Notes: generated by a model not told the origin, from the letters alone. DNA of 64,000 nucleotides from an uncultured bacterium (GCA_963720265.1 CAVRET010000001.1:5916-69915), one strand, 5' to 3'. Counted from the first letter of the stretch, positions 113 through 22,943 are shown. Made by a program: numbers and translations.

Positions 113-126
113 ACTGGCACGGAATC

Positions 127-1164: not shown

Positions 1165-1234
1165 ATGGCCTGTGGAAAAGTTTTCGGAATGGGCCTTACT
1201 GGCGGGTGTTGTGGCCATGACTGTTGTAAAAGTG

Positions 1235-1263
1235 TTGACACCTTCCGGCCTTGCCAATAAACT
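1235..1263 (+). promoter_or_regulatory. Sigma70-like promoter candidate (TTGACA-N17-TAAACT) upstream of the 1345 gene
   Basis: A TTGACA hexamer, a 17-nt spacer and TAAACT were read directly. They lie about 80 nt upstream of the ATG at 1345, which has a purine-rich RBS (AAAGAG). Confidence 0.4.
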
Positions 1264-1344
1264 GGAGCGTAAGAAGTAAAGATTTAAAACGAAACTTCCT
1301 GTACTGAGCCTCACGGCAAGTAAACACAACAACCAAAGAGTCAA

Positions 1345-2634
1345 ATGCAAAAACGTTCACAAAAGCTAGTAATAGGAATCTCGGTAGCAGCGCTGATCTT
1401 GGCGGTGTTTCCTCAGTTTGCCGGCAAAGCGAATGCTTCGAGCCTGCCGCAGTTTGGGACTGTGGTGGTGCGGCTGGATAATGACACCTCGGCAGCCTAC
1501 TCGGGCGGTTCCGTGTGTATCGCCACCCCTGCGGTAACCTCAGGCGTTACCGGCTTTGGCACCGAGAATTACGTAGATATCGGCTTCCCAGATACGGATG
1601 GTGTGACTTCAGGTCAAGACTTTCAAGTGCAGGACACGACGCTGACGAACTGGATTACGAGTACAACTCCGCCGGCTAGTCCTGGTACCGGTAGTGCGTA
1701 CTGGCCGACAATCAATATCGGTGGTACCGGTGTGGCACCGGCGGGCTGGCCTAGCATTGGTACGAACGCGGTGGCCGCTACCAATGGCTCGTACACGCTT
1801 GGTGACCCACAAACCCTCAAGGTCGTGCGGTTTGCCACGGGCAACCTCACGGCCGATAAAACCTATTGCTTCGATTTCCGCTCCGGCACAAACTGGCCGG
1901 GTTCCGCTGAAACCTCATCAACCTATGCACTTCAGGTGTCACATGTAGGCACGAACGGCTATATCGAGGATGTGCCGGGATACGTTGAGACCTACCACTG
2001 TTCCTCCGGTTGCTCAGCAGTGGGGGCAGGCCAGGGTATCGAATCGAGCAACTGGGGCACGCAGGTCAGTGCTAACAATCAGATCGTGGTATCGGCGGTC
2101 GTGCCTCCAATCTTTGAAATGGACTTTGCCTCCAACATTGACTCATTTCCAACTAACTTGAACCCGAACAGTGTTACGACAACTACGGGCAATACCGTCG
2201 TCGTGAAGACGAACGCGAAAGGAGGTTGGTTCGTATGGACCAAGAGCGCAAACCAGGCACTAACATCCGTGTCCTCCGGAGGTTCGATACCAAGTGTAGG
2301 GTGGGGCTCGACGCCCGACACCCCCACGGCGCTCGTGGCCGGAACGCCCGGATACAACCTGACAGTAGGAGTAACCGCGAATGTGAACGGCGCAGGCACG
2401 ACGAAATGCACCCCAGCAGTCACGGCAGAGTACGCCGGTGTGCTCACAAGCTTCCAGGGTGGTGAACTGACCCCCAACTGGGAAATGGCAGCCACCTGCT
2501 CTACCGTCACGCCTCCCGGCACAGACGGCGGCACGGACGTAACCTTTAATGAAAACGCCGCCATCTCGTTCAGCACCCCAGCCGCATCTGATTACACTGA
2601 CACCATTTACGTGACAGGAGCCGGCCAATTCTGA
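1345..2634 (+). CDS. Secreted WxL-like surface protein (C-terminal …TDTIYVTGAGQF)
   Basis: N-terminal signal peptide (MQKRSQKLVIGISVAALILAVFPQFAGKANA). Conserved blocks AVVPPIFE, KTNAKGGWFVW, NQALTSVSSGGSIPSVGWGS and a terminal YVTGAGQF. Clear paralog of 2766..3860. Confidence 0.7.
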   Translation: MQKRSQKLVIGISVAALILAVFPQFAGKANASSLPQFGTVVVRLDNDTSAAYSGGSVCIATPAVTSGVTGFGTENYVDIGFPDTDGVTSGQDFQVQDTTLTNWITSTTPPASPGTGSAYWPTINIGGTGVAPAGWPSIGTNAVAATNGSYTLGDPQTLKVVRFATGNLTADKTYCFDFRSGTNWPGSAETSSTYALQVSHVGTNGYIEDVPGYVETYHCSSGCSAVGAGQGIESSNWGTQVSANNQIVVSAVVPPIFEMDFASNIDSFPTNLNPNSVTTTTGNTVVVKTNAKGGWFVWTKSANQALTSVSSGGSIPSVGWGSTPDTPTALVAGTPGYNLTVGVTANVNGAGTTKCTPAVTAEYAGVLTSFQGGELTPNWEMAATCSTVTPPGTDGGTDVTFNENAAISFSTPAASDYTDTIYVTGAGQF

Positions 2635-2691
2635 TCGCAATGCTCTAGATTTACTCCGGTTCACGCTCGATATTAAGCTCACATAATTCTT

Positions 2692-2718
2692 GAGGCATGC
2701 AATGCTCTTGCATGCCTC
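2692..2718 (+). terminator. Perfect 11-bp-stem hairpin between the two tandem paralogs (attenuator/terminator-like)
   Basis: GAGGCATGCAA-tgctc-TTGCATGCCTC followed by a weak T-containing tract (ttatgctttcgg). Intergenic position between 1345..2634 and 2766..3860. Confidence 0.35.
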
Positions 2719-2765
2719 TTATGCTTTCGGTAAACTGGATTCAATAGTTGTGACACGGAGAGTCA

Positions 2766-3860
2766 ATGAGGCCCACGCGCCTGTCTGGTGTACGAATTGG
2801 TCTGGTAGTTGCCTTACTTCTGGCTACCTTTGATGCCTTTATGCCGCTTGGTGCGATGGCGTCGACGGGGGAGCTCAAAACGACCATGATCCGGCTTGAC
2901 AATATGTCAGCGAGCACGGCCACGAAGGGGACCGTGTGCGTAGAAGGAGAAACCTCGACCGCGACTGACTATCTTCAGGTGACATTCCCGACTGGATTCG
3001 TTTTGGGTACAACTGCCAACTGGGCAACAACAACGACGCCACCGTCCGGGCCGGGCACCGGTAGTCTCTATTGGCCAAGTAGTGCGAGCGGCTTCCCGAC
3101 TTCTCTCACGGCCACCAATGTGACTGGACAAACCGTCACGTTCCAATATGGGACTGCTACCAACATCGCTCTTACTGCCACTGTATATTGCTTTGATTGG
3201 ACAAATTCAGCAGCTCTTACCACATCGACTGCAGGGACCGATTTGCAAGGATCAGTAACCCTTGAGAACGCAACGCCCGCAGCGGTTGATGTTGGCGACT
3301 ATGCGCTCACGGTACTTACGAGCAACTCGATCACCGTGACTGCAGTGGTGCCTCCAATCTTTGAGTTTACGATGCCTGGTACTACGGATCAATTTACTAC
3401 AAACTTGAGTCCATCGGCTATCACGACCACGACTGGAGTGACGCCAACGATTAAGACTAACGCCAAAGGCGGGTGGATAATGTGGGCACATGATTCGAAC
3501 CAGGCACTAACTTCTGCGTCGTCAGGCGGATCAATACCAAGTGTGGGCTGGGGTTCGCCGGCCAATACTCCAACGACGCTCGTAGCAGGTACGGCTGGAT
3601 ATGCATTGAACGTTGTAAAATCGGTGGCCGGCGGTACGTTCTGTACTGAGACGGTCGATCCGGAATATGATACCGTAGGACATGGATCTGGTAATGGTGG
3701 TGAATTTTGGTCAAACTGGCAGCAGATTGGGCAGTGTGCGGGTGGACCGTCGAATGGTGACGGCTTGGAATTGCAAGAAGAGGCGACGATCGCGGTGACG
3801 ACTCCGGCCTCAACTGATTACACTGACACGATATATGTGACGGGCGCAGGTCTGTTCTGA
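2766..3860 (+). CDS. Secreted WxL-like surface protein (C-terminal …TDTIYVTGAGLF)
   Basis: Signal peptide. Shares AVVPPIFEF, KTNAKGGWIMW, NQALTSASSGGSIPSVGWGS and TDYTDTIYVTGAG with 1345..2634. Confidence 0.7.
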   Translation: MRPTRLSGVRIGLVVALLLATFDAFMPLGAMASTGELKTTMIRLDNMSASTATKGTVCVEGETSTATDYLQVTFPTGFVLGTTANWATTTTPPSGPGTGSLYWPSSASGFPTSLTATNVTGQTVTFQYGTATNIALTATVYCFDWTNSAALTTSTAGTDLQGSVTLENATPAAVDVGDYALTVLTSNSITVTAVVPPIFEFTMPGTTDQFTTNLSPSAITTTTGVTPTIKTNAKGGWIMWAHDSNQALTSASSGGSIPSVGWGSPANTPTTLVAGTAGYALNVVKSVAGGTFCTETVDPEYDTVGHGSGNGGEFWSNWQQIGQCAGGPSNGDGLELQEEATIAVTTPASTDYTDTIYVTGAGLF

Positions 3861-5068
3861 TGCGCGGAGCCGGGGGAGCACGTGGGCGTTTTGCGAAAAC
3901 GCAGCTGGCGCTAGCGTTTGTGTTTCTTGGATTTGCGAATTCGCCGACGGTGGCACAGGCGGCCAGTGCGCCGGCTCCGACGCCCAGCCCGGTGACTCGG
4001 CCTACGACGCCGCTTGATCTCACGACATCGCCGCTCCCAATTACGCTATCGGCCTCGCCGGGTGAGACGGTGTCGACGAGTATTAAAGTGAAGCAATCCG
4101 GTGGTGATACCGAGGCGCTGCAGGTTAATTTGCTCAAATTTTCGGCCTATGGCGAAGCAGGCGAGCCGGCACTGAGTTCGTTTGGGCCGGGTGATGATTA
4201 CAAGAATTGGGTAACCTTTGACAAGCCGACGTTTGAGGCGCCGAACGACGTGTGGCAAACCGTCAAAATGACGATTGCGTTGCCCAAAACAGCGGCTTTT
4301 GAGTATAACTACGCAGTGCAGTTCTCGCGGGTGGGGGACAACTTGTCGCCTGGCGGCAAGGACGTGGAGGGCGTGGCAGGCTCTACGGCGGTGCTAGTGC
4401 TTTTGAACGTGAACGCGCCGGGCGAGAATCGGTCGGTACAGCTTGATTCATTTGGCGTAGTGCGTAAGATCGTGCAATTTTTGCCGACCACGTTTGAAGC
4501 TAGATTTTACAACAACGGCAATGTGTACGTGCAGCCGACCGGCGATATTTTCATTACCCAGGGCAAGCACCAGGTCGGAATGGTGCTGCTTAACGATGAA
4601 CAGGGGAATCTGCTGGCCGGGACGCACCGCATTTATCAGATTAATTGGGCCGATGGGTTTCCGTATTATGAGCCGACCAGCCAACAGGGCAAGCCGGTGG
4701 TGGATCGGCATGGCAATGTCGTGCAGTCACTGAATTGGAACTTGCCAAATAGCACAACGGCTGCGCTAACAAGCGGCGTGGCTTCAACCACGAACCCGGA
4801 TATGGCTCAAGAAAGTACAAATCCGCTGTCGCGGTTTCGGTTTGGTGAGTATACGGCTAGGCTAGTCGCCGTGTATCAGGATAACTATGGCCGTGACGTG
4901 CCGATTACGGCGCAGATCAATTTCTGGGTCATTCCGTGGTGGCTGCTGCTAGCCCTGCTGGCAGTGCTGCTGGTGTTTGGATTTGCGATTTACTCGCTGG
5001 TTGCTAGTGTTATGCGCCGCCGGCGGCGGCTCGAGCGGATCAAACGGAGGCGCAGAAATAATAGCTAA
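3860..5068 (+). CDS. Surface protein with a C-terminal membrane anchor (DUF916/DUF3324-like architecture; Csc/Duf-type partner of the WxL-like proteins)
   Basis: Signal peptide (LALAFVFLGFANSPTVAQA) and a Pro/Thr linker. The C-terminus reads INFWVIPWW + TM helix LLLALLAVLLVFGFAIYSLV + basic tail RRRRRLERIKRRRRNNS. Same end architecture as 4977..6026 and 32140..33195. Confidence 0.65.
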   Translation: MRGAGGARGRFAKTQLALAFVFLGFANSPTVAQAASAPAPTPSPVTRPTTPLDLTTSPLPITLSASPGETVSTSIKVKQSGGDTEALQVNLLKFSAYGEAGEPALSSFGPGDDYKNWVTFDKPTFEAPNDVWQTVKMTIALPKTAAFEYNYAVQFSRVGDNLSPGGKDVEGVAGSTAVLVLLNVNAPGENRSVQLDSFGVVRKIVQFLPTTFEARFYNNGNVYVQPTGDIFITQGKHQVGMVLLNDEQGNLLAGTHRIYQINWADGFPYYEPTSQQGKPVVDRHGNVVQSLNWNLPNSTTAALTSGVASTTNPDMAQESTNPLSRFRFGEYTARLVAVYQDNYGRDVPITAQINFWVIPWWLLLALLAVLLVFGFAIYSLVASVMRRRRRLERIKRRRRNNS

Positions 5069-6026
5069 GGTCGGCAAAGCCGTACGGGCGGCGATCCTTG
5101 GGATTGCTGCCTCGCTGGTTTTGCTGGTCGGCTCGTGGCCCGCTGAGGTCAAGGCAGCACAGAGCACCGCTGGGTTTGCCATCTCGCCGATTTACCAAAA
5201 CGTTACGTTGGATCCCAATGCTCCGCAGTCGCACTATGTTGCAACTTTGTCTAATTCAACGACTTTTAGCCAGGCGTTTAAGCTCAGCACTGTTGACTTT
5301 GGAAGTTTAAATGAATCCGGCGGGGTGGCGTTTCTTGGTACTTCGTCTAGTGCGTTTGCACGACGGTTTGGACTGTCGGCTTGGATGCAATTAGATCAGA
5401 ACGCCGTCGTGGTGCCGGCTGGGGCGAGCGTGGATATCGGCGTTACCATTGTGAATTCTTCCAACCTGCAGCCGGGCGGTCATTACGGGGCGGTACTAGC
5501 CACGGCGCAAACTGCTCCCAACGGTTCGCCGCAGACGTCACGGGTGGGTGTGCTTGAGGTATTGTCTTCCCTGATTCTGCTGGTGAAGGGCGGTGGGCCG
5601 CCGCCGGATCTCGAACTCGCGGCGCAATCGGTTAACCGGATCGGCTCAAGATTTCCGACAGCTGTGACGGACCGCTTTCACAACATCGGCGACGTGCACG
5701 TGGTGCCGCGGGGCGTTGCGACGGTGCGCGACCCACTGGGAAAGGTGGTAGCGCGGGCCGCATTGAACGAAAACTCGGGCATTATCTTGCCGCAGACTTA
5801 CCGGCTGTACAGTGCGCCGTTTACACCAATGGCCCGGGCCGAGATTCCGGGCCGGTATCAGGTGATGACGAGCTACCGTTTCGACGGCACTGAGGCTACG
5901 AAAACGTTTACTAGTTGGTTTTGGTATGTGCCGCCGGTTTGGTTTTGGGTCGGCGTTGCGCTAGTACTGGCAGCGTTGAGCCTCATTGTGTGGTGGTACG
6001 TCCGGCGCCGGCGCGTTAGAGGTTAA
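4977..6026 (+). CDS. Second C-terminally anchored surface protein (DUF916/DUF3324-like); the 5' end overlaps the previous gene, so the real start is probably an internal GTG/TTG
   Basis: Signal peptide AILGIAASLVLLVGSWPAEVKA. PGGHYGAVL motif shared with 32140..33195 (PGGHYGVVRF). C-terminus FWYVPPVWFW + TM VGVALVLAALSLIVWWY + VRRRRVRG. Confidence 0.6.
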   Translation: MDLRFTRWLLVLCAAGGGSSGSNGGAEIIAKVGKAVRAAILGIAASLVLLVGSWPAEVKAAQSTAGFAISPIYQNVTLDPNAPQSHYVATLSNSTTFSQAFKLSTVDFGSLNESGGVAFLGTSSSAFARRFGLSAWMQLDQNAVVVPAGASVDIGVTIVNSSNLQPGGHYGAVLATAQTAPNGSPQTSRVGVLEVLSSLILLVKGGGPPPDLELAAQSVNRIGSRFPTAVTDRFHNIGDVHVVPRGVATVRDPLGKVVARAALNENSGIILPQTYRLYSAPFTPMARAEIPGRYQVMTSYRFDGTEATKTFTSWFWYVPPVWFWVGVALVLAALSLIVWWYVRRRRVRG

Positions 6027-6477
6027 CCGTGGCCTGAATTGTCTTGCCAAGCTCGGCTTCTGGCGCCGTAATGAGAAGGTTGCCACCGGGTTGGCTGCTG
6101 ATGTAGAAACCGCTACCCCACAGGCCGTGGCCGCCGAAGGGATCCTGTGGTATGCCGGTGATGTAATCGCCGGCCGTGGTGAGGAAGCTGAGGTCAACCA
6201 GGTTCTTGGATGTACAGTCGGCGCCGGAGCTCGTGCAGATTTGGGCAGGCTGTAAGCTGATAGTCGTGGGGAAGGCGCCGTGATCTTTGTGGTACTGCTC
6301 GAGGGCACTTGCTATCTGATTGATGTAGGCGGTGCGTTCGCTGTTGCGATAGCTGGGCGTGTCGGCCGGTTGGCGCGACTGCATCCAGGGGTCGGTGTTT
6401 GTTGCTAGCATTACAACTCCGAGGACTGCGCCGATCGCGACATAGGACAAAAATGTACGCAGACGCATGATCTCCAC
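6016..6477 (-). CDS. Small exported pilin/pseudopilin-like protein with a non-canonical (Sec-type) leader
   Basis: N-terminal hydrophobic segment MRLRTFLSYVAIGAVLGVVMLA. The downstream stretch ERTAYINQIASALEQYHKDHGAFPTT matches the alpha1-C helix and loop signature of GspG/type IV pilins (A.xDI..I..ALE.Y..DNG.YPTT). It lacks the G-F-T-L-I-E prepilin cleavage motif. Confidence 0.45.
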   Translation of the reverse strand: MEIMRLRTFLSYVAIGAVLGVVMLATNTDPWMQSRQPADTPSYRNSERTAYINQIASALEQYHKDHGAFPTTISLQPAQICTSSGADCTSKNLVDLSFLTTAGDYITGIPQDPFGGHGLWGSGFYISSQPGGNLLITAPEAELGKTIQATVNL

Positions 6478-6592
6478 GCATCGATTCTAGCATAGGAGGT
6501 TTCGGGGCTTGGGCTAGGGGCGCAACTTACCCTCAAAACTCTTGCGCTTATACCTGAAAACGGCTATGCTTTAAGGGTAACTGTGTGAAGGT

Positions 6593-9500
6593 GTGCGGCT
6601 ACCCAATCGCTTCGGATTGAATCGAAGATTTCGGGTAAGGGCTGGTAAGAACCGGCGCATAGTGGCCAAGGCCCTGACGGCGATTGGTCTTTTTGGCGTT
6701 GCTATTCTAGCGGCTGCGAGCCCGTGGCTGGCACCAGGCGCTGCGGCCGGGACGGGGATCAACCAAACCATCAACTTCCAGGGCAAGCTCGTGAACACCG
6801 ACGGCACCAATATCCCGGACGGCACCTACAACATGGAATTTAAGCTCTACACCGGTGGTAACGGCTGTGTGGGCGGCGGCAGCTCGCCGTGCTCGGGGTC
6901 AAACGTTTGGACCGAGGATTGGCTGAACAACAACTCGCAGGGCGTAAGCGTGTCGGCGGGTATCTTCCAGGTCAATCTGGGTTCGATTACGAGCCTGCCC
7001 ACTTCGGTGTTCAACAACGATACCGTGTGGATGTCGATTAACCTTGGCAACACCAACCTGACCTGCACGCCATTTGGCTCCTGTAGCGGCGACGGCGAGA
7101 TGCTGCCGTTTATCCGGTTTACGGCTTCACCGTACTCGTTTAACTCGCTTGAGCTGGGTGGGATTGGGGCGAATGGATTTGCGCAGCTAAGCCCGGCGAG
7201 CGCACAGAGCGGCAGCTTGAACGTAACCGGCAGCGTGCAGGCGGCTACCAGCTTGCAGGCGCCACTGGTTGACACGGCTACGGCCACGGCGCTCGACATT
7301 GGGACCGGCATGGCTAGCAGCGTGACTATTGGGCAGACCACTACGCCGTTTTTGATACAAGGCAATTCAACGAGTACGTTCACGGCTACCAATAGCACTA
7401 ATACAACCACGGTGGGTTTTGCGACGCCGACCGCTAATCAGACGCTGACGTTTGCGGCTGAGAGCGGAGCGCAGACCATCTGTACGACAGCGGCAGCGAC
7501 CTGCAATACGACCTACGAGCCATACAGTTCGACAGGCTATTTGGCCAAGAACGCAACTGATACCTCGACTGTAACAGGGACGGCAGTTACGGCTGGCAAT
7601 TACTTGTACGGTTTCACGAATAACTCAACCGCGACCACCGGCGGCGTGCTCAACCTTTCCAACGGTGCCAATACCGGCAACGCTTTGTACGTGACGGCCA
7701 GCGGCAACCCGGCTGCGAGCACAAATGCACTCGTGGTGGTGAATAACACGGCCGGCAGCCCAAGTGGAAACCTGATTGATTTGCAAAAAGCTGGGGCGAA
7801 TGAGTTGAGCGTGGATTACAACGGTAATGTGACACAAAACGGCGGCACGAGCACAACTGATACCGTTAACGGCCAAACAATTTCAGCGGCCGCCAACTTT
7901 ACCGGCACGGTGACAGCTACCGGTACGATTATTGGAGGCGGGACGTTTAAATCGGCGGATCAGACGGCTGGCAATACGGCGGCGGTTACCTTGACTTCAG
8001 GCAATGCCAGTGTGGGCTCGAGCCTGAATTCCGGATCAGTGACGATCGACTCAGGCACGCCGACCAGCGGCGGCACGGCCGGATCTATATCGGTGGCACC
8101 GACGAACTCAGGGAGCGTCACTATTGGACGCAATGGATCGGGTGCCCCGACTATTGCGATAGAGGGCGGCTCGAGTAGCTCTTTCCAGATTAATAACGGG
8201 ACCGATTACTCACTGGTGCAATTTACGGCACCGACAGCCCAGGTTACGTATACGCTGGGCACTAACGCAAGTAACACCACGGCTACCATTTGTACTTCTC
8301 TTGCAGCCAGTTGTAGTAGTACCTACGAGGCGGCTGGTAGTTACTTGCTGCAGAACCCGGCGGCCAACGACGCCTCGACTAGCAACTTCGCCGGCTACCA
8401 GTATTCGTTTACGCAAAGCAACACCGGGGCGGCCGGCAACTTATCGCTTACCAATGCCGGCACCGGCGACGCCCTGTCGGTGAGCGCCAGCACGAACCCG
8501 GGCGCCACCACGAGCGCGCTGATTGTTGCGAACAACACTAACGGCACGCCGAGCGGGAATTTGCTGGATTTGCAAAAGGCCGGCGCGAACGAGTTGAGCG
8601 TGGACACCAGCGGCGACATCGCTACACTTGGCGGATACACGCAAACCGGTTCGACTGCCAACACGCTGACCGGTGCGACTACGATTAGCGCCGGAAGTTC
8701 GAGCGTGAATGGGTTGACAGTAAATAACAACTCCAATTTTGGCACCAACTCCGGTACCACACTTACGGTTGGTATTAATAGCACACCCAATGCCAAGCTG
8801 AATGTGAATACTGGCAGCGCGGTGGCGTTCCGGGCGTATGAGGCCAGCACATATGACATCGGCCAGTTTGCTGAGACCGGCGCCGGTGTTGGCAATGTGA
8901 ACACGAACGCCACAACAACGGTGTCGGGCGGCAGTGTGAGCCCCTTGTTCACGCAATATTTCAGGGTGGGCGATGCTATTTTGGTAAACGGCCAGCTCAG
9001 GACGGTGTCGAGCATTGCCAGCGATACCAGCATGGTGGTGAGCACGTCGATTACATCCGGCACCAACCAAAGCTACTACAACGGCGTGGTGGGACCGGGG
9101 ACGGTGACGACCAACGGCACAACCGCGATTGTGGGGTCGAGCACGACCTTTACCACGACCTTCCAGGCGGGTGACACGATTTTGATCAACGGTGAGACGA
9201 ACCCAGGCACTGTCGCCAGCATTACCGATAATACGCATCTGACGTTGGTTAATACGGCGGCTACAAGTGCGAGCGGATTGGCATATGCGCGCAGCGAGTA
9301 CGACCGGCTCGACATTAAGGCCAACGGCAACGTGGGGATCGGGACTAACAGTTCGACCGCAGCGCTTATGATTCAGCCGGACGGGGTAGGGCAGGCCGGC
9401 TTTGCGATCCAGGGCGCGGACGGGCAAACGGCACTCTTGCAGCAAAACCAGGATTACACCGGTGCGGTCTTAAGTTCGTTTGGCACCAACGGCCAGCTGA

Positions 9501-11218
9501 CGCTTGGGCGGGCAGCAGGCTCCGGGACGCAGCAGACCGGCACGATATCGTTTGTGGACGGTACGAGTGGGACGAATACATATGTTGACACGCTCAACGT
9601 GGCGAGCCTCAGCGGAAACCACACAATCTCGCTGCCGGATGCGGCCGGCACGATTTGTTTGACCAGCCAGAACTGTAGTACGGCCGGGTCGGGTTACATC
9701 CTGTCTCAGAGCTCATCACCCGGAACGGCACAGACCGGTGCTAACTTTAACATCGCGGGTACCGGGATTGCCGGCACCGCCCTGGAGTCGCCGATACTTG
9801 ATACCGCTACAGGTGTTGCACTTACGATCGGCAACACTCACGCGACCGCAATTAACTTGGGTAATACAACCAGTAACATTGCCACCACCATTAACGGTAC
9901 GGCCAGCGTTCAGCCGACGAGCGGGCACGATTCAGGGACGGCATTCACGGTCAAGAACGGCGCCGGTACGACGACTGAACTTCAAGTGGACACGAGCGGC
10001 AACCAAGTGGTGGTTGACGGAACGACCGGGTCGGCCACACTGACGGTGCAAAATACGAGTAGTAACACGAACGTGTTGAACGTGCAGGATTCGAGCAGCA
10101 CGAGCCTGATCGAAGCGACCAATTCAGATAACGTTAATCTAGGCAAAGCTCCGACGGCGCCGTTCGGGAATGCGAACACCGGTTCAGCCGGTGGCTCTGA
10201 TGATGGCGACTTGCTGGCCATAGGCTTTACGACAGGGGTATCAGGTGGCGGTGCGATTTCGTCGATAAGCGCATATGTTAGCGGTGCAGTGGCGGCCTCC
10301 CCTGACAATAAGGGCCAAATTGCAATTTATAGCGATTCTTCCGGTTCGCCCGGTTCGCTGTTGGCGTCGTCGTCACCGATTGCGCTGACTGCCAGCGCGT
10401 GGAATACGTTCTCCATCTCTTACACCTTGATGAACAGTACGCCCTATTGGTTTACCTATTGGGAGAACAGCGGTGCGGGTGAGAATAGGATTGGTCTTGA
10501 AACCCCCACGGTGGGAACAACACTTGACATTGCGCACTCTGCATATGGAAGTTTGCCGGGCACCTGGCCGGGTACGGCGACTGGTCCACTTGGCAACTAT
10601 GACATGTCAATCTATGCGACCTACGCGGCTTCAAGTGAGCCGGCTGTCGAGCTCAACAACAGCACCAATCAAGCCGATTTCGGCTATGGTACTGGTGTGT
10701 ACCTGCAGGGTGCCGGCGCATATTTTTCGAATCCGCAGGGCAACACTGACGCCGAAGCATTTGGACTGGATGCCAGCGTTTCAGGGTCGGAGGCTACCGC
10801 CCTCGGAGAGGGCTCCACGGCTAATTATCAGGGTACGGCCGCTGGTCAAGGTTCGTTCGCGGGACAAGGTTCCCTGGCCCTGGGGCAAAATACGGGTGCA
10901 TCGGGACTTGACGCCACGTCGGTCGGTGGTGGAGCGGCAGCGGTCGGTAATTACGGTGTTAGCTTGGGGGCCGGAGCATCAGCTCCGTCCAACGCCAGTA
11001 TTGCCCTTGGTGTCGGCGCACTCACGACGGCCGTTAATCAGCTGGTGGTCGGCGGGAGTAACGCGGATGGAACCTATATCCAAAATGCCTACTTTGGATC
11101 TGGAAGTCACGGACGGTACGCCTCAGAGCGTGACCTTAAATGCGACCGGTGGTTCGGGTTCGAACATTGGCGGTGCGAGCTTGACCCTGGCTGGCGGTAT
11201 CGGTACCGGGACAGGTAA
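6593..11218 (+). CDS. Giant Thr/Gly/Ser/Asn-rich surface protein, N-terminal part (beta-helix-like repeats); the reading frame decays after about 11,106
   Basis: 1541-aa ORF with an N-terminal hydrophobic signal anchor (ALTAIGLFGVAILAAASPWLA). Internal ~260-aa repeats (…PSGNLIDLQKAGANELSVDYNGN… and …PSGNLLDLQKAGANELSVDTSGD…). The last ~35 aa (HGRYASERDLKCDRWFGFEHW…) are compositionally aberrant. The frame-0 ORF takes over from that point. Confidence 0.6.
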   Translation: MRLPNRFGLNRRFRVRAGKNRRIVAKALTAIGLFGVAILAAASPWLAPGAAAGTGINQTINFQGKLVNTDGTNIPDGTYNMEFKLYTGGNGCVGGGSSPCSGSNVWTEDWLNNNSQGVSVSAGIFQVNLGSITSLPTSVFNNDTVWMSINLGNTNLTCTPFGSCSGDGEMLPFIRFTASPYSFNSLELGGIGANGFAQLSPASAQSGSLNVTGSVQAATSLQAPLVDTATATALDIGTGMASSVTIGQTTTPFLIQGNSTSTFTATNSTNTTTVGFATPTANQTLTFAAESGAQTICTTAAATCNTTYEPYSSTGYLAKNATDTSTVTGTAVTAGNYLYGFTNNSTATTGGVLNLSNGANTGNALYVTASGNPAASTNALVVVNNTAGSPSGNLIDLQKAGANELSVDYNGNVTQNGGTSTTDTVNGQTISAAANFTGTVTATGTIIGGGTFKSADQTAGNTAAVTLTSGNASVGSSLNSGSVTIDSGTPTSGGTAGSISVAPTNSGSVTIGRNGSGAPTIAIEGGSSSSFQINNGTDYSLVQFTAPTAQVTYTLGTNASNTTATICTSLAASCSSTYEAAGSYLLQNPAANDASTSNFAGYQYSFTQSNTGAAGNLSLTNAGTGDALSVSASTNPGATTSALIVANNTNGTPSGNLLDLQKAGANELSVDTSGDIATLGGYTQTGSTANTLTGATTISAGSSSVNGLTVNNNSNFGTNSGTTLTVGINSTPNAKLNVNTGSAVAFRAYEASTYDIGQFAETGAGVGNVNTNATTTVSGGSVSPLFTQYFRVGDAILVNGQLRTVSSIASDTSMVVSTSITSGTNQSYYNGVVGPGTVTTNGTTAIVGSSTTFTTTFQAGDTILINGETNPGTVASITDNTHLTLVNTAATSASGLAYARSEYDRLDIKANGNVGIGTNSSTAALMIQPDGVGQAGFAIQGADGQTALLQQNQDYTGAVLSSFGTNGQLTLGRAAGSGTQQTGTISFVDGTSGTNTYVDTLNVASLSGNHTISLPDAAGTICLTSQNCSTAGSGYILSQSSSPGTAQTGANFNIAGTGIAGTALESPILDTATGVALTIGNTHATAINLGNTTSNIATTINGTASVQPTSGHDSGTAFTVKNGAGTTTELQVDTSGNQVVVDGTTGSATLTVQNTSSNTNVLNVQDSSSTSLIEATNSDNVNLGKAPTAPFGNANTGSAGGSDDGDLLAIGFTTGVSGGGAISSISAYVSGAVAASPDNKGQIAIYSDSSGSPGSLLASSSPIALTASAWNTFSISYTLMNSTPYWFTYWENSGAGENRIGLETPTVGTTLDIAHSAYGSLPGTWPGTATGPLGNYDMSIYATYAASSEPAVELNNSTNQADFGYGTGVYLQGAGAYFSNPQGNTDAEAFGLDASVSGSEATALGEGSTANYQGTAAGQGSFAGQGSLALGQNTGASGLDATSVGGGAAAVGNYGVSLGAGASAPSNASIALGVGALTTAVNQLVVGGSNADGTYIQNAYFGSGSHGRYASERDLKCDRWFGFEHWRCELDPGWRYRYRDR

Positions 11219-14200
11219 CGGCGGCAACATTAACTTTAATATAGCGAAACCGAGCGGGTCGAGCAGCTCGACGCCGAATACGCTTGCTGCTTCACCTGTC
11301 GAGAGCCTGAGCGGTGTCAACGGAGCAGCAACTTTTGAAAATTCCGCCAACTCGACAACGGCGTTCCAGATCCAAAATGCTTCGGGCGTGCCGGAACTCG
11401 CGGTAGACACGAGCGGCAACAAGACCACGCTTGGGCACATTGGGACGAGCAACGCGTTGCAAGGCACATTAGTGCTGAGCGACGGCAGCACGGACAACTT
11501 TGGGGCGACGATTCAAACCACCGGCAGCCTCACCGGTAGCTCGACCTTCCAGCTGAGTGTGACGAGTGCCAATGGAACCTATCAGATTTGTACGACGCTG
11601 TCGGTCTGCTCTGGTTATTCGGGTGGATCCGGTACCGCGATTGTTGAAGCTCCCGCGTCGACCGCTCAGAACACGATTAACCCCGGTGCGACATCGGGCG
11701 TGGTGGCGCTGACGGCGCGCGGAGGTAGCTCCGGCAGCCCAGACATTATTGATGTGATGGATTCGGGCAATACCAAGCAGGACTACTTTAATTCCGCCGG
11801 CTCGCTTAACGTGAACCAGCTGATCCAGCCGACGGCCAACAATACGATTGACCTGGGCGTGAGTGGTACGGCGTTTAGGACCGGCTACTTCGGTACGAGT
11901 GTGCAGACGCCGCTGTTGGATACGCCGAGCGGCACGACGACGCTGGCGGTCGGCGCCACCAGTGGCGGCAACGCGACGGCGATCAACTTAAATCAGAGCA
12001 CGAGCGTGGCAGCCGGCAAGAACTTAAGCTTGGCCAGCGGCACGGGCACGTTTAGCCAAACCTATACCGGGACTTCAACGGATGCACATACCATTACGGC
12101 CAATTCGTTGACGACCGGCACTGGTCTGAAAGTGACGACCAGTAATAACACCGCGGCCAACACGTCGTGGAGTGCGATTCAATTTGACCCCACTAATGCG
12201 CAGGGGACGACAGCGGTGAGCGGCACGAATTTGATCTCTGGGTTTGACGAAGAGTTTACGCAAGCGGCGACGGTGGCCGGTAATAATGAGACGGTGGCCA
12301 ATTTCGCGATTGCGGCCAACAGCGGCTCGCCGGCCGACCAGACCGTGAACTCGATCATTAACCTAGCCAACAACGATACCGCAACCGGCAACCAGATTAC
12401 AGCCACCGACGGCTTGCAGGTGAACGGTGCTAATGTGACAAACGGCATTTACTTTAACGGGACGTTTGGGACGAACCTAATTTCGTCTTCCACCAATAAC
12501 TTTAGCGTCAGCCAGGCCGGCGCGATCGTGGGTGTGGGTGTGAATTCGGGCATGGGTCTCCTGCAGGGCACCGGCGGACTGACGCTCACCGGCACTACTC
12601 AGATTAATGCGACTACAGCCGGCACGACCACAATTGGCAACACTACGGCCGGGGCGATTCAGCTGGCGTCAGGCGGGGCCTCAAGCTTTACCGTGACTGG
12701 GTCGACATTGGCGCTCGGTGGCACCAACTTTAATTTGGCCACGACCGGCGTTATTACTATGCTGGGCGGCACGGGTGGCGACATTACCACCGCGGCTGGT
12801 GCGACTGCGAATGGACTCGTGTTCCAGCCGGGTAATACCACAACGGCGACTTCGACCGGCGCAGGCATGACGATCCAGGGCGGGAATGATTCCGGCGCGA
12901 CTGCGGCGACCGGCGGCCTGCTGACACTCAAAGGCGGCAATGCTACAACTGGAACCACGACGACCGGTGGGGGGGTGACGATTGACAGCGGTTCGGGGAC
13001 TACGGCCGGCGGGGCGGTAGCGATTGGCGGCTCGAATGCGGCTTCGGTGGCGCTGGGGCGCACGGGTATTACGACGCAGGTAAATGGCACGGCGCAGCTC
13101 GGCGGTTCGGCCGGCAGCGGGGCACTCATTAATAATGGGTCCACGACCAATACCGTGGACGCGTTGGGGAACTTTACTAGCAGCGGTTCGATTTCGGCTA
13201 CGCCAACGACAACGGTTGATATTTACACCTATATTTCGATCGCGGAGACGAGTACCGGCATAAGCTTGACCATTCCGTCGCCCACGGCTAGTACCGCTTA
13301 CGGGAAGCTGTTATATATCTCGAATATTGGTACGCAGCCGTTTGGGCTGTTGAGTTCGAATTTGAACCCGGGCTCGACCGCGACATTGGTGTGGGCCAAC
13401 GCGAGTGGGGGAGCGGCCTGGACGTTCGCGGGCGCCGATGCCAATGGTTTGCAGTCGGCCTACAACAACTCAGGGACAACGAACCCGCAGATTGTGCTGT
13501 CGAACACCAACGGTGGCATTAAAGTGCAGGATGCGTCGAGCTCGACGATCACGTACCTGCTGCAGATTTCCAATAATGGCGGCACGAGCAACTACCTGAC
13601 CGTGACTTCGGCGGCGTCGGGGACGTTAGGTACATCCAATATCACGCTTTACGCGACGTCGGCGGGTAATGGCTCGCGGACGATTTCGATTGCTAACCAA
13701 ACCACGGCCGGGCAAATCGGCGACACGCTTAATGTGATTGCGGCGGCGGGTAACACGTCGGGCGCCGGTGGTGCGCTCAACGTAACGGCCGGCGCGGGCG
13801 GCAATGCAGCCGGCGGCGGGGCAGTGACAGTGTCGGGTGGCGCAGCCGGCGGCGGTAATAACGGCGGGGGTGTGGCGACGCTGCAGGGCGGTGCGGCCAC
13901 CGGTACGGGTACTGGTGGCACGACCAACGTGGACGGCGGCGCGGCAAGCAGCACAGCAGGATCGGCGGGCGGCGCGGTGTCGATTGCTTCGGGCGCGGGC
14001 GCTACCGGATCAGGTGCTACCGGTGGCGCGGCGAGTGGCGCGGTGACGATTAATAGTGCGAACGCGGGCGCCGGCGGCGGAACTAGTTCGCCCGGCGGTA
14101 GTGCCGGGAACGTTACTATTACCGCTGGGAATGGCGGCACGAGCACTAACGCGGCGGCGAATGGTAGTGGTGGCAGCATCTTCTTAGTGGCTGGCAACGC

Positions 14201-17200
14201 GGGCACTAATGGTAGCGGTACTGCCGGTACGCCCGGTGTGGTGAGCATTGATTCGCCGGTGTTTACGTCAGTTGCGGCTTCCGCTAGTGGCTCATCCTAC
14301 GCCATACCTCAGGGTGACATTGATAACTATGGAACCGTTGTTATTACCGAGAGCACGTCAGGTGGTACGGTTACGGTGGCTGCGCCCACAAACAATTCCA
14401 CTGGTCATGTCATATATATGATGGCGAGCAACGGGTCGTTAAGCTTTACGCTCTCGCCGTCCGGTGGTCCGAGTGTCAACATGGACCCGGATGACACGGA
14501 AATGCTGGAGTGGAACGGGAGCCAGTGGACGGCGAGCGTTTCCGGCAGTTCGCTACAGCAGGTCTACAACAACACGACGACGGCCCCGGCGTCGATTGTA
14601 ACGACCTCGAACACCAAGACAATTTTGCTGCAGGCGGGCTCCGGTGATGACGCTTCGAACTTGTTTGCGGTCGACAACGGCTTGGGCTCGGCAGCATTGG
14701 ATGTAGATACTACAGCAGGCGTAAACCTGATTCAGAACTCGAGTTTTGAGACCAACCCGTTGCCCGGCTCGGGGGCTGGGGCATGGACAAAGGTTGGTAA
14801 CGCCTCGGCCTCGGTGGCTCGCAGCACTACTTATGCATACGTTGGCTCGGCCTCGCTGCAACTTAACACTACGAATAACTCGGGTGACGGCGTTGAGCAG
14901 GCGATTACCACTAGCACCGGCACGGCGACCGCGTTGACTGCCTCAACGCAATACTACATTTCTTGGTATGCCAACGGCGCCGGTACGGCTGTGCCGAGCA
15001 CCATCGCGGAATACGCATATAATGGCTCAACGTTCTCGGCCTGCACGGGTCTGAACATTACGAGCGGTGCAATTCCGAGTAGTACGGGTTGGACCCGCTA
15101 CAGCTGTACCTTTACCACCGGCTCGGGTGGTACAGCGCCTACGACGAGCAATGCGATTGAGATTATCCAGAATTCGGCACCGGGCGGGACGCGCACGTGG
15201 TACATCGACGCGGTGCAGTTGGAGCAAAACGCGACCGGCCCGACCGCTTTCCGCGAGACGGCGCTGCAGCTGAACGGCCTCATTACTTCGCCGGTGGCGA
15301 TCCAGTCGGCCAACAACTCGGTGTCGGCATTGAGCGTGCAAAATGCTTCGGGCTCGTCGCTGCTCGTAGCCGACACCTTGGACGGCGCAGTGGGGATTAA
15401 CATGGGCGCGCAGGCGATGGTGAACGGCGGCGGCGACTTGCAGTTTGGTGGCAGCGCCAACCGGACGATCGAGGTGGAGTCGGCAGTGGCAGCTAATGCA
15501 AATGGTGGGAATTTAACGTTAGCGGCTGGCCAAGCGAACGGCACTGGCACCGGTGGCACGCTCAACCTTAATGGTGGCACGGCGAGCTCAACGGCTGGGT
15601 CGGCCGGTGGTGGCGTGGCGGTGAGCGGGCAGACCGGTGCGGCTAGCTCGAGTGCTACTGCGGCCGGGGCTGGTGGCGCACTTACGGTTACGAGCGGTTC
15701 CGGGGGTAATGATTCAAGCTCCGGTGCCGGTGGGGCTGGTGGTAACCTTACGCTTGCGGCTGGTAATGGCGGCAGTTCCACCAGCGGCACGAATGGCGGC
15801 GGCGGCAGCATCTTCCTGGTCGCCGGTAATGCTGGCGGCACCAGCAGCGGTACGCCCGGGGTAGTCAGTATCGATTCGCCGGTGTTTACCTCAATAGCTG
15901 CGTCTGCTAGCGGATCCTCATATGCGATTCCTCAACCCGATATTGATGGTTACGGGACCGTGGTTATTACCGAGAGCACGTCGGGCGGTACGGTGACTGT
16001 GGCTGCGCCAACGAACAATTCCACGGGTCACGTTATCTACATGATGGCCAGTAACGGGTCCACTAGCTTTACGCTATCACCGTCAGGTGGTCCGAGCGTG
16101 AATATGAACCCGGATGATACCGAGATGCTGGAATGGAATGGTTCACAGTGGACCGCCAGTGTTTCCGGCAGTTCGCTGCAACAGGTGTACAACAATACCA
16201 CGTCCTCCCCGGCCTCGATTCTGACGACTTCCAGTACTAAGACGATTTTGATTCAAGCCGGGGTGGGTGATGATTCATCGACCTTGTTCTCGGTTGATAA
16301 CTCATACGGTTCGTCGGCGCTAGATGTGGACTCGACGACCGTTAATCTGATCCAAAACTCGAGTTTTGAGGAAAGTCCGTTGCCCGGTTCGGGCGCAGGC
16401 GCCTGGACGAAGGTTGGTAACGCTTCTGCGTCGGTAGCGCGCAGTACAGCGCAGGCCTATTTGGGCTCTGCCTCGCTGCAACTCAATACCACGAACAACT
16501 CAGGCGACGGCGCTGAACAGACGCTGACCAACACCGCGGGCACCGGTACCGCTCTGACGGCCTCTACAACCTATTATCTGTCCTGGTACGCCAACGGCGC
16601 TGGGACGGCGGTTTCAAATACGGTTGGTGAATATGCCTATAACGGCTCGACATTCTCGGCTTGCACGAACTTGAGTATTACAAACGGCGCTATCCCGGCC
16701 TCAACCGGCTGGACGCGCTACACTTGTACCTTTACAACGGGTTCGGGCGGCACGGCTCCAACTACGAGCAATGCGATTGAGATTATCCAGAATGCGGCGC
16801 CTGGCGGGACGCGGACATGGTACATCGACGCGGTGGAGCTGGAGACAGCCGGGAGCCTGGCCCAGACCGATGCCTACGCTGAGGCCAACCTGCAGTTTAC
16901 CGGCAACGTGGTGTCGCCGTTGTCGATCCAAAATGCTACCAACTCGACCACGGCTTTCCAGATTCAAAACGCCGGTGGAACGCAGATGCTGGACGTGGAT
17001 ACGCTGGACAGCTTGGTTGTGATCGGTACGAGTACAAATAATGAAACCTTTGGGTCGACCGGGGAGCCGACATTAGCGGGCACAGCACGGCACGCCAAGA
17101 CGATACAGCTGACGGCTGAGTATGCGGGTGCGGTGCTTGATACGGGCGGTCAAACGAGTGTTACCGGTATTATGACTGCTGCGTTTGATAGCACGCACGA

Positions 17201-17603
17201 CATTGGGTACTACAACTGGACTACGAGCCAGGGCACGGCTCAAACGTACGATATTGTGGCGCGAGTGCCGATTCCATCTGATTGGAGTTCATGGAACGGC
17301 AATCCGACATTCCTCACGCAAGCAAACGTGGGCACTACTACCGGCGTGTCTCTGACTGTTGAGTCGATTTCGTACGAGGTTAACAGCAATCCGACTGGTA
17401 CACCTACAACGGACGCGACCTTCGGGACCTACACGATTACTCCATCGTCCGCTAATACCTGGACCGCATTCAGCGGTAATGCGCTGGCGTCGAGTGGTTA
17501 CGCCGTGGGCGACACTATGATTATTCGCATTCGGTTGAGCGCACTGAGCAACGATTCGGTGGAGATGGGCGATATCACGATACCTTACCTGAGCAAGTAT
17601 TAG
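10473..17603 (+). CDS. Giant surface protein, C-terminal part (Gly-rich beta-helix repeats plus 2x CBM4/9-like modules); its first ~210 codons are non-coding-like, so it is probably continuous with 6593..11218 via a frameshift
   Basis: 2376-aa ORF. Translation becomes protein-like only from about 11,100 (…LDLEVTDGTPQSVTLNATGGSGSNIGG…). Contains GGxLNxxGGxA glycine-rich repeats. Two ~350-aa modules carry NLIQNSSFE…GWTRY.CTF…TWYIDAV.LE, matching the CBM_4_9 beta-sandwich signature. Confidence 0.6.
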   Translation: MRVRIGLVLKPPRWEQHLTLRTLHMEVCRAPGRVRRLVHLATMTCQSMRPTRLQVSRLSSSTTAPIKPISAMVLVCTCRVPAHIFRIRRATLTPKHLDWMPAFQGRRLPPSERAPRLIIRVRPLVKVRSRDKVPWPWGKIRVHRDLTPRRSVVERQRSVITVLAWGPEHQLRPTPVLPLVSAHSRRPLISWWSAGVTRMEPISKMPTLDLEVTDGTPQSVTLNATGGSGSNIGGASLTLAGGIGTGTGNGGNINFNIAKPSGSSSSTPNTLAASPVESLSGVNGAATFENSANSTTAFQIQNASGVPELAVDTSGNKTTLGHIGTSNALQGTLVLSDGSTDNFGATIQTTGSLTGSSTFQLSVTSANGTYQICTTLSVCSGYSGGSGTAIVEAPASTAQNTINPGATSGVVALTARGGSSGSPDIIDVMDSGNTKQDYFNSAGSLNVNQLIQPTANNTIDLGVSGTAFRTGYFGTSVQTPLLDTPSGTTTLAVGATSGGNATAINLNQSTSVAAGKNLSLASGTGTFSQTYTGTSTDAHTITANSLTTGTGLKVTTSNNTAANTSWSAIQFDPTNAQGTTAVSGTNLISGFDEEFTQAATVAGNNETVANFAIAANSGSPADQTVNSIINLANNDTATGNQITATDGLQVNGANVTNGIYFNGTFGTNLISSSTNNFSVSQAGAIVGVGVNSGMGLLQGTGGLTLTGTTQINATTAGTTTIGNTTAGAIQLASGGASSFTVTGSTLALGGTNFNLATTGVITMLGGTGGDITTAAGATANGLVFQPGNTTTATSTGAGMTIQGGNDSGATAATGGLLTLKGGNATTGTTTTGGGVTIDSGSGTTAGGAVAIGGSNAASVALGRTGITTQVNGTAQLGGSAGSGALINNGSTTNTVDALGNFTSSGSISATPTTTVDIYTYISIAETSTGISLTIPSPTASTAYGKLLYISNIGTQPFGLLSSNLNPGSTATLVWANASGGAAWTFAGADANGLQSAYNNSGTTNPQIVLSNTNGGIKVQDASSSTITYLLQISNNGGTSNYLTVTSAASGTLGTSNITLYATSAGNGSRTISIANQTTAGQIGDTLNVIAAAGNTSGAGGALNVTAGAGGNAAGGGAVTVSGGAAGGGNNGGGVATLQGGAATGTGTGGTTNVDGGAASSTAGSAGGAVSIASGAGATGSGATGGAASGAVTINSANAGAGGGTSSPGGSAGNVTITAGNGGTSTNAAANGSGGSIFLVAGNAGTNGSGTAGTPGVVSIDSPVFTSVAASASGSSYAIPQGDIDNYGTVVITESTSGGTVTVAAPTNNSTGHVIYMMASNGSLSFTLSPSGGPSVNMDPDDTEMLEWNGSQWTASVSGSSLQQVYNNTTTAPASIVTTSNTKTILLQAGSGDDASNLFAVDNGLGSAALDVDTTAGVNLIQNSSFETNPLPGSGAGAWTKVGNASASVARSTTYAYVGSASLQLNTTNNSGDGVEQAITTSTGTATALTASTQYYISWYANGAGTAVPSTIAEYAYNGSTFSACTGLNITSGAIPSSTGWTRYSCTFTTGSGGTAPTTSNAIEIIQNSAPGGTRTWYIDAVQLEQNATGPTAFRETALQLNGLITSPVAIQSANNSVSALSVQNASGSSLLVADTLDGAVGINMGAQAMVNGGGDLQFGGSANRTIEVESAVAANANGGNLTLAAGQANGTGTGGTLNLNGGTASSTAGSAGGGVAVSGQTGAASSSATAAGAGGALTVTSGSGGNDSSSGAGGAGGNLTLAAGNGGSSTSGTNGGGGSIFLVAGNAGGTSSGTPGVVSIDSPVFTSIAASASGSSYAIPQPDIDGYGTVVITESTSGGTVTVAAPTNNSTGHVIYMMASNGSTSFTLSPSGGPSVNMNPDDTEMLEWNGSQWTASVSGSSLQQVYNNTTSSPASILTTSSTKTILIQAGVGDDSSTLFSVDNSYGSSALDVDSTTVNLIQNSSFEESPLPGSGAGAWTKVGNASASVARSTAQAYLGSASLQLNTTNNSGDGAEQTLTNTAGTGTALTASTTYYLSWYANGAGTAVSNTVGEYAYNGSTFSACTNLSITNGAIPASTGWTRYTCTFTTGSGGTAPTTSNAIEIIQNAAPGGTRTWYIDAVELETAGSLAQTDAYAEANLQFTGNVVSPLSIQNATNSTTAFQIQNAGGTQMLDVDTLDSLVVIGTSTNNETFGSTGEPTLAGTARHAKTIQLTAEYAGAVLDTGGQTSVTGIMTAAFDSTHDIGYYNWTTSQGTAQTYDIVARVPIPSDWSSWNGNPTFLTQANVGTTTGVSLTVESISYEVNSNPTGTPTTDATFGTYTITPSSANTWTAFSGNALASSGYAVGDTMIIRIRLSALSNDSVEMGDITIPYLSKY
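13700..16900 (+). repeat. In-frame tandem duplication (~1.65 kb unit x2) inside the giant ORF
   Basis: Protein segment 14170-15230 (GGSIFLVAGNAG…TWYIDAVQLE) recurs at about 15800-16850. It is about 90% identical at protein level and about 80% at DNA level. Each copy is preceded by a Gly-rich repeat stretch. Confidence 0.7.
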
Positions 17604-20600
17604 GTGGGCTGGAAGCTGAGACGGACAATGGTTATGGTAGACACAGTGAAAGTGGTGATGGTTAAAGTTTGGGCGGCGATGCGGTCGTGGCTGGTCAGTT
17701 TGCGCCCACGCGATGTAAGGCGCTGGTGTCAGTATCTAGTGCGGCATCTTAGCCGTGTGGATATTCGAAAACCGGTTCATGCCGTCGTAATTGGTGCGAT
17801 TATCGCCATGATCGCTGCGCCGGTCTTGAATGTGTGGGCTACGGATGCGCGTTATGACCTCACTGCTGACCAGCTGAGTGTGATGGAAAAGCCCGCGCCG
17901 GATCTTGAAAGCAAGCTCAAATACTACAGCGCGAAGCAGGCCATCATATTTAATGAGTCGGGGGCTGGTGCGACCGATCCGGAGAGCGGCGGCACATTGG
18001 CGGCCGAGGCTGGCGGCGGCAAAGACCAGCTCTACACTGCGACCATGCCGGATGATCCAAGCCAGGGCATTACGGTCCAGGATAACGTTAATCAGGTGTC
18101 GGTGTCCTTTACCCCAGAGCTTAGTTTGATGAATGGACGGGCCGTAGATAACCATGTGGTTTACCCTTTGCAGAACCAAAGTGGAGTGTTGAGTTTCACG
18201 CCCAAGGGCAATGGAGTAAAGGAAGACATTGTGCTTGATTCAGCGCCGGGAACGGATACAGCGGACTTCCAATATAAATTGAGCATGCCGGATTATGTGC
18301 AGCCGCGTCTCAATGATGACGGTAGCGTTGGATTTTACACAGCCGACCCTGAGTTTTTTGGCGATATCAGCTACGGGGACCAGAAAGACGAAGACGCAGT
18401 CAATAAGGCCCGGATGAACGACCCCAAGAATTACCTGATGTTTGAGATTCCAGCACCGTATGTCAAGGATGCGGCCGGAGTGGAGGCGACACAGGCACGA
18501 TTTAGTCTCTCGGGTGACCAGTTGACCGTGCACGTAACTGGCTTGGATCACGCTGCGTATCCGCTGTCGATCGACCCGACGTTTGTGCTCTCAAGTACGT
18601 CTGACTTCGTTACAGGCAGTATAGACGATAACATTGACCTCTCGGTCGCCAATCAGATTGGCCGGTCGCCGCTGTCCGGTGGGTCGATCCCGACTTTTAC
18701 GGCTTCAAGTTTCGATACAACGAGCGACGTTTTTGCAGGGGCGCTGGTTGCCTATAACGGCTACTTGTACCTGATCGGCGGCGTGGCTGGCGCCGCTGGT
18801 TCGACAACGGACAACCAAGTTGAGTATAACCCTATAAACTTAAGCACCGGAGCAACTACCGGCTGGACCTTGGATTCGACTACGCTTAAGACCGGCCGAC
18901 AGGGGTTGGTGGCATTTGGCTTTAACGGCTATTTATATGCCGTGGGCGGAGAGGTTGCTACTACGGGCGTGCCAATAACCACAGCTGATTCGGTTGAATA
19001 TGCACCTATTAACAGCAACGGGACGGTTGGTACATGGAATTACACGACTGGGCACTTGAATACTGCCCGCAGTTACCCGGCTGGGGCGAGCTACCAAGGA
19101 TTTCTGTATGTTATGGGTGGTTCCAGCGGTACGCTTGATGCGACCCAATTGAATACGTATGAATATGCTCAAATTGAGGGTGATGGAGATATTGCCTCGT
19201 GGACCCAAACCGGCAATACGACGTTTACAACGGCACGGAACCGGTTTGAGGGAGCGGCATACAATGGATATGTTTATATAGCCGGCGGGCTGAGTGGCGT
19301 GGGAGGCACTCCGATTGTTAACGACGACGTACAATATGCGCCCATAACCAGTACCGGGGCACTCGGAAATTGGTCCACGACAACGTCGTTTCCCACGGCC
19401 AGACGTAACTTTGGTTTGGCTGTGAACAATGGCTATATGTATGTGTATGCCGGCTGCAACCAGGCCGCCTTGGGTTGTACTGGCGCCAATATTTTGGCTG
19501 ATACTGAATACGCGGTTATTAATGCCGACGGGAGTATTGGTCAGTGGCAGGAAACCCTTAATTATAATGGTGCTGACTCCACTCGTGAGCCGGGTGGCTC
19601 GACATTCTACAGCAACCACTTGTACTTTGTGGCTGGATGTAACTCTGAGTCGGGTACGGCTAACGAGTGCGCTACGCCGCTGGAGTTGACTTTCTATTCT
19701 ACTCTTGACAGTCCAGGACGGTATGACCGGGGGATATCGAATATTGAGACCACTGCGCCCTATTCTAATAACGGTATGACAGAGGCAAAAGATGGCGGGT
19801 CGAGCGTGGCGTTGAATGGATATCTGTACTATCTTGGTGGGTGCAGTATCCAGAACTGTGCCGGCTATGACAATACGGTTGAGTACGCGACGCTGAATGC
19901 GAATGGGACACTTGGAACATTTTCCGCTACCACGAGCTTGCCGAGTGCGGGTTCCGGCCTGGGAGGTGGCCGGATGGGCGCGAGCGTGGTGGCGTACAAC
20001 AATAAGTTGTACGTGATTGGAGGTGTAGCAAACGGTATTTTCCCGCAGGTGCTGGCAGTGCAGCCGACAGTGGTTGGCACGACTTCGACCACGCACAATA
20101 TCGCAATGCCAACCGGCACGGTGACCTCAGGGGATTTGTTGCTGGCAATTATTACCATGACCGGCGGTACTGGTACGACGATTACAACACCTTCAGGATG
20201 GACGCCGATCACAAGCGCGACTAATGGGACCACGACGCTTATTTCAGTGTATGCGAAGAGTGCAGCCGGGACCGAGAGTGGAACGACTGTGAACTTTGGT
20301 ACTGGGTCGAATGCCGTGGCGGCGGCCCAGGTGTACCAAATCCAGAACGGCACCTGGAATGGTGGTACGCTGACATCGGTGATCGCCACAGGGACAGCGG
20401 CGGCCAGCGCTACTACCGCTCCCAATCCACCGTCGGTGACGCCGGGCTGGGGAGCGGCGAACGATTTGTGGATCGCGGCGGCCGGGGGCAACACCTGGAC
20501 GGCAGCGTCAGCCTATCCAGCCGGGTTTAACAGTGAGCCCGATACATTTACTGGCAGCGGTACGACGGGTGCGGATGTTGTGTCGTCGATTACGGATCTT

Positions 20601-22913: not shown

Positions 22914-22927
22914 GCCTTTTGCTGGCC

Positions 22928-22936
22928 TGGTATACT
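22928..22936 (+). promoter_or_regulatory. Extended -10 promoter (TGgTATACT) 8 nt upstream of the 22944 ATG (near-leaderless transcript)
   Basis: A TGG followed by TATACT was read directly immediately upstream of ATG 22944. No good -35 hexamer is present, as is typical of extended -10 promoters. Confidence 0.35.
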
Positions 22937-22943
22937 AAGCGCA

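Follow-up and report, generated by a model that had tools for sequence, protein, structure and literature searches.

The window analysed here is a stretch of 64,000 nucleotides from an uncultured bacterium, with positions counted from its first letter. Its plus strand carries two giant open reading frames (ORFs) that overlap in different frames: 6593..11218 in frame 2 (1541 aa) and 10473..17603 in frame 0 (2376 aa), both with GTG starts. Are these two genes, one gene whose halves are joined during expression, one gene that was recently disrupted, or one gene that is intact in the organism and broken in the assembly? The original prediction held that one giant gene is cut near 11,105 by a frame change of one nucleotide (+1), and left the cause of this change open among a recent disruption, a sequencing or assembly indel and a programmed +1 frameshift. 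Comparison of the locus with homologous proteins and with an independent assembly of the same run answers most of this question. The two ORFs are one surface-protein gene of 3,646 residues that is split in the assembly, and the base that splits it is probably a consensus indel.

Position of the frame change

The overlap between the two ORFs is real (10473..11218); by the ORF listing it measures 746 nt, one more than the 745 first given. Translation of both frames confirmed the coding discontinuity that had been described. Frame 2 is protein-like as far as ...IQNAYFGSGS and aberrant after it (HGRYASERDLKCDRWFGFEHW...); past ...NQLVVGGSNADGTYIQNAYFGSGS it reads HGRYASERDLKCDRW... and meets a stop 37 codons on. 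Frame 0 is junk before about 11,100 and protein-like after: its first ~211 codons are Arg/Pro/Cys-rich nonsense, and from ...VTDGTPQSVTLNATGGSG on it holds 2,165 protein-like codons. The frame-0 overhang upstream of the seam is stop-free by chance in DNA of 58% G+C. The out-of-frame tail of the first ORF, which no homologue matches, is not real coding sequence (Table 1).

The exact seam was placed by homology. A 600-aa query centred on it, searched against a collection of 5.8 billion proteins, returned 14 matches, the best with 50% identity, over 35% of the query. With a best match at this level, the giant gene as a whole has no orthologue in the collection searched. All matches that cover the seam region continue straight across it, into frame 0 of the window. 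The frame change cuts mid-way through a conserved module of ~105–108 aa, away from any domain boundary. We aligned ten sequences of this module, consisting of nine copies from eight unrelated homologous proteins and the repaired window sequence. The copies from homologues show 40–63% identity, and the alignment has a mean column identity of 59% with 18 invariant columns. A Gly38–Val39 pair at the seam is invariant in all aligned copies and belongs to the conserved seam motif ..Y.G.GVT..P....L.ATGGSG... Because this pair is invariant, the ancestral reading of the seam is TAC TTT GGA TCT GGA GTC ACG, or YFGSGVT.

The seam is thus ...YFGSG-VTDGTPQSV..., where ...YFGSGS-TDGTPQSV... had been proposed. 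The Ser placed at the junction gives way to the Val that is invariant in the homologous modules. The base to be skipped, taken at first to be the C at 11108, was misplaced by 3–4 nt; the surplus base is the A of GGA-A-GTC, at 11104/11105.

The continuity of the module also bears on whether the ORFs might be two separate adjacent genes, or one gene that is switched by phase variation at a simple-sequence repeat. Nothing but the ORF calls speaks for either, and we regard both as very improbable. The break falls midway through a module that nine homologous copies carry unbroken, and no start after the junction comes with a ribosome-binding site: no Shine-Dalgarno-like sequence precedes the candidate internal starts at 11130 and 11181. 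Adhesins that vary in phase by slipped-strand mispairing are alike in that a large surface-protein gene is turned off by a 1-nt indel. They carry a repeat tract at the switch, however, whereas the window site has only the AA of GGAAGTC, with no homopolymer or short tandem repeat tract, and the longest runs lie elsewhere.

The closest database relative, P0001 (50% identity; ENA ERZ25039539 contig_28809, 10001..11404), was considered as an orthologue and rejected for its phage-tail/GTA-like neighbourhood and fragmented genes; it was used only as a module copy. It adjoins GTA_TIM, Phage-tail_3, NLPC_P60 and Phage_BR0599 genes. P0001 is itself visibly frameshifted, with ...GVTMPSPTELYLACHRRLRHRHAGAAFTLAGG... 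in place of the expected ...ATGGSG..., and ABC_tran on its contig is split into genes of 129 and 126 aa, signs that point to a long-read contig rich in indels.

An independent assembly of the same run

Logan contigs of run ERR11523669 were retrieved through the exact products of neighbouring ordinary genes. Logan starts from the 31-mers that occur 2 or more times in an accession (Cuttlefish2), and its contigs are then simplified by Minia3 with SPAdes-like heuristics (PMC12424806). In BLAST comparisons, contig ERR11523669_48075 (75,048 bp) covers window 1..26378 with one gap and 0 mismatches. Contig _158999 matches window 27217..38686 over the part compared, and contig _266788 matches window 47009..60620, each at 100.000% identity with 0 gaps. 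The three contigs therefore give 0 mismatches and 1 indel in 51,460 bp compared, which indicates that both assemblies represent one strain from one sample and gives no hint of strain heterogeneity. The sole difference is the junction, where the window reads GGAAGTC and Logan, lacking the extra A, reads GGAGTC. Since each Logan 31-mer needs at least two read occurrences, the reads must truly contain the intact allele, which is also the path that the assembler retained.

On the Logan contig, Prodigal calls a single gene of 3,646 aa, from a GTG at window 6662 (L002:12803) to the stop at 17603. The window minus one A likewise yields an ORF of 3,646 codons with one terminal stop. The protein encoded by this repaired ORF agrees with all 2,802 residues of the Logan product found in L002, and L003 contains its tail. 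From the GTG at 6593 the repaired gene is 3,669 aa long (+23 residues). The seam predicted from the homologues, YFGSG-VTDGTPQ, is exactly the Logan sequence. Read-through in the homologues and the independent k-mer assembly of the same run settle the frame question, and the central claim of the original prediction, one giant gene cut by a single-nucleotide frame change near 11,105, is upheld by both. Annotation should show a single 3,646-aa gene here, in place of two genes, a pseudogene or a site of recoding, with a correction flag at window 11104/11105.

Table 1. Features of the giant gene, its seam and the two window ORFs
Feature	Coordinates	Strand	Evidence
5' part (frame 2), residues 1–1481	6662..11104	+	Translation, Logan gene call
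3' part (frame 0), residues 1482–3646 and stop	11106..17603	+	Translation, one-A deletion
N-terminal hydrophobic segment (MAKALTAIGLFGVAILAAASPWLAPGAAAG)	6662..6751	+	Read from translation
YadA-head/Hep_Hag-like repeats, residues 1356–1465, just upstream of the junction	10727..11056	+	PDB, Pfam
Conserved ~108-aa module (..NQLVvG....Y.G.GVT..P....lnATGGSG.n..G..l.LAGG.gTG.g.GG..)	10991..11315	+	Alignment
Frameshifting base, AA versus single A in the independent assembly (GGATCTGG-AGTCACG)	11104..11105	+	Assembly comparison
Out-of-frame tail of the first ORF (HGRYASERDLKCDRWFGFEHWRCELDPGWRYRYRDR, then stop)	11108..11218	+	Translation; 0 homologue matches
Spurious frame-0 upstream extension of the second ORF	10473..11105	+	Translation, start-site inspection
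Tandem duplication, copy 1 (~510 aa), residues 2402–2912	13866..15398	+	65–86% identity to copy 2
Tandem duplication, copy 2, residues 2948–3454	15504..17024	+	Self-comparison

An exact 60-mer across the junction had 0 matches in genome contigs, and a gapped junction pattern that allowed 0–2 extra bases had 0 matches in JGI metagenome contigs; the strain is therefore absent from the genome contigs and JGI metagenome contigs searched. Products translated from the window ORFs, the first from 6593 and the second from 11181, had no record in exact look-ups, perhaps because the gene caller chose other starts, and window 40007..41332 likewise had none. The clustered protein collection does not contain the repaired product of 3,646 aa, and a literature search found no paper that mentions run ERR11523669 or the prefix ERR11523.

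At window 47009 and 60620, the Logan contigs break within coding sequence that is strongly conserved, namely a sigma-70-like region on the minus strand and a DIGGGTTEVA motif like that of MreB. These breaks are typical de Bruijn branching on k-mers common to genomes and no fault in the window sequence.

Recoding and the origin of the extra base

Programmed +1 ribosomal frameshifting, as in prfB, or transcriptional slippage would fuse the two ORFs during expression. Such recoding has the formal geometry in its favour, with two long ORFs that stand in the 0/+1 relation and share a long overlap, and it is scarcely credible on every other count. A programmed +1 frameshift was rejected: an in-frame allele of the same strain, without the extra base, is present in the same sample; at the seam TCT GGA A GTC, tRNA-Gly is unable to re-pair on GAA and there is no slippery P-site codon; no stop or rare (hungry) codon imposes a pause, the next frame-2 stop being 37 codons away; and the downstream 120 nt form no unusual RNA structure (z = +0.63; 142 of the 200 shuffles were as stable or more so). 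There is also no AGGAGG-like (Shine-Dalgarno) stimulator upstream, no A/T run of 8 or more that could serve transcriptional slippage, and no frameshift at the seam in any homologue. The likeness to prfB (RF2) is limited to the 0/+1 frame relation of the ORFs. The CUU-U-type slippery codon, in-frame stop, Shine-Dalgarno stimulator and conserved shift of prfB all lack a counterpart at the window seam. In a giant low-complexity gene, a seamless +1 junction does not count as evidence for programmed frameshifting.

Among the three causes offered originally, the sequencing or assembly indel is the best supported; programmed frameshifting falls away, and all that is left of a recent disruption is a possible minor or alternative allele alongside the intact one. 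The extra A is probably a consensus indel in a source assembly that was itself probably made from long reads. There would then be one gene of 3,646 aa (or 3,669 aa) for a secreted or surface protein, which the organism would translate conventionally as one polypeptide, with no recoding. An error in the consensus or polishing step of the source assembly would have written GGAGTC as GGAAGTC and shifted the frame. ORF finders would consequently return a 1,541-aa ORF with a 37-codon nonsense tail and an overlapping 2,376-aa ORF with a 211-codon nonsense head.

Such an artefact is supported by the absence of the indel from the independent assembly of the same reads, and its removal restores a single ORF that is colinear with the homologues. 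The source assembly also crosses an 896-bp IS5-family element without Ns, and both de Bruijn contigs end about k–1 bases inside the element ends. The uninterrupted element suggests that the source assembly was built from long reads with consensus polishing. Isolated indels are known to remain in assemblies of this kind. The locus resembles the artefactual split ORFs of consensus-polished, mostly long-read assemblies in its single-base indel, its overlapping ORFs in adjacent frames, the intact coding signal on either side and the indel-free independent assembly. It differs from them in having no homopolymer at the site.

That difference counts against a plain error, since long-read consensus errors concentrate in homopolymers and the insertion (A to AA) lies outside any. 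The homopolymers of the giant gene, a G7 run and four 5-nt runs, agree between both assemblies. The same observations favour a real extra-A allele, carried by part of the population (or by the population of another run), with the assemblers having picked different alleles. The downstream 6.5 kb are also fully open and identical to the intact allele, as a very recent event would leave them, and loss-of-function variation often affects giant surface proteins. The product of such an allele would be a truncated N-terminal fragment of 1,481 aa with a 37-aa nonsense tail, the C-terminal 2,165 aa being lost, and other cells would retain the intact form. We consider a real allele unlikely, if deserving of attention, because the k-mer assembler kept the intact allele for the same run, the 0 SNPs in 51,460 bp give no other sign of co-existing strains, and two majority-rule assemblers of one read set would differ only near a 50:50 allele frequency. 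Were the source a short-read de Bruijn assembly, the extra-A k-mers would be in the reads and the allele would be real.

A real co-existing extra-A allele in a natural Saccharimonadales-like population would mean standing heterogeneity, on in some cells and off in others, of a surface adhesin of 3,646 aa, a doubtful proposition at present. The extra-A form would keep the N-terminal 1,481 aa and lose the fibre-module end together with the duplicated C-terminal half, and the heterogeneity could reflect phage or host selection on the cell surface.

A GATC site at window 11097..11100 precedes the extra A by 4–5 nt. Methylation-motif-associated consensus errors could matter if the source assembly were nanopore-based, which is purely speculative.

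The giant protein and its neighbourhood

The intact product is composed to 63% of Thr, Gly, Ala, Ser and Asn. Its N-terminal hydrophobic segment is likely a signal peptide or a membrane anchor, as read from the translation. Searches of Pfam, NCBIfam, PHROGs and PDB sequences gave nothing significant for ~95% of the protein (~3,400 residues). The YadA-head/Hep_Hag-like repeats upstream of the junction match PDB 3s6l_A (Hep_Hag family) with E 6.1e-4 over residues 1356–1465. Pfam YadA_head (PF05658) scores 17.3 bits in the giant protein, below the 25-bit cut-off, and scores above the cut-off in P0004–P0006, homologues that carry the junction module. The 3s6l_A match and the YadA_head of the homologues suggest a possible likeness to the head repeats of the YadA/Hep_Hag trimeric autotransporter adhesins. 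The giant protein differs from YadA adhesins in its sub-threshold head score, and neither a YadA stalk nor a C-terminal membrane-anchor β-barrel was found; residues 1482–3646 have no Pfam, NCBIfam or PDB match. There is also a likeness to phage tail-fibre-like proteins in the fibre modules, and P0005, one of the homologues with the junction module, carries phage tail-fibre families elsewhere in the protein.

The C-terminal half holds a tandem duplication (Table 1), whose first copy contains a Gly/Ala/Ser-rich stretch and a jelly-roll-like 'NLIQNSSFE...WYIDAVQLE' segment. A second internal duplication is found nearer the N terminus, with residues 220–413 resembling residues 485–693 at ~49% identity. 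Taken together, the composition, the leader and the YadA-like repeats make a putative fibrous surface adhesin the best functional reading of the predicted protein.

The organism is probably a Saccharimonadales-related member of the Patescibacteria, a placement on one marker protein: ribosomal protein S2 of the window is closest (67%) to that of an uncultured Saccharimonadales MAG, and the remaining loci listed reach at most 58%. Giant Thr/Ser/Gly-rich surface proteins of Patescibacteria (CPR)/Saccharibacteria are similar in size, hydrophobic leader, low-complexity T/G/A/S/N composition and duplications, as well as in clustering with large unannotated proteins and a Kelch-repeat protein. A giant surface protein that lacks annotation and has Hep_Hag-like head repeats, the product holds moderate interest for studies of the Saccharimonadales cell surface.

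Directly after the stop of the giant gene (17603) lies a Kelch/β-propeller repeat protein of 1,761 aa, at 17628..22913, and five unannotated ORFs lie upstream, at 97..6026. Together with the giant gene, these appear to form a cluster of genes for large proteins that are secreted or lie at the surface. Two of the upstream ORFs, 3860..5068 and 4977..6026, lack Pfam matches and overlap on the same strand by 92 nt, or by 62 nt on the Logan calls (402 aa and 339 aa). Both assemblies are base-identical at 3860..6026, so any frame relation there is real.

The IS5-family insertion sequence is 896 bp long (26349..27244) and has 18-bp terminal inverted repeats (GAACCCATTTCAAATCTC). Both Logan contigs break close inside its ends, which implies that the element is repeated in the sample. 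On its minus strand, orfA (27161..26943, DUF4096) and orfB (26855..26358, DDE_Tnp_1) lie in different frames, an arrangement that is usually joined by a programmed –1 frameshift.
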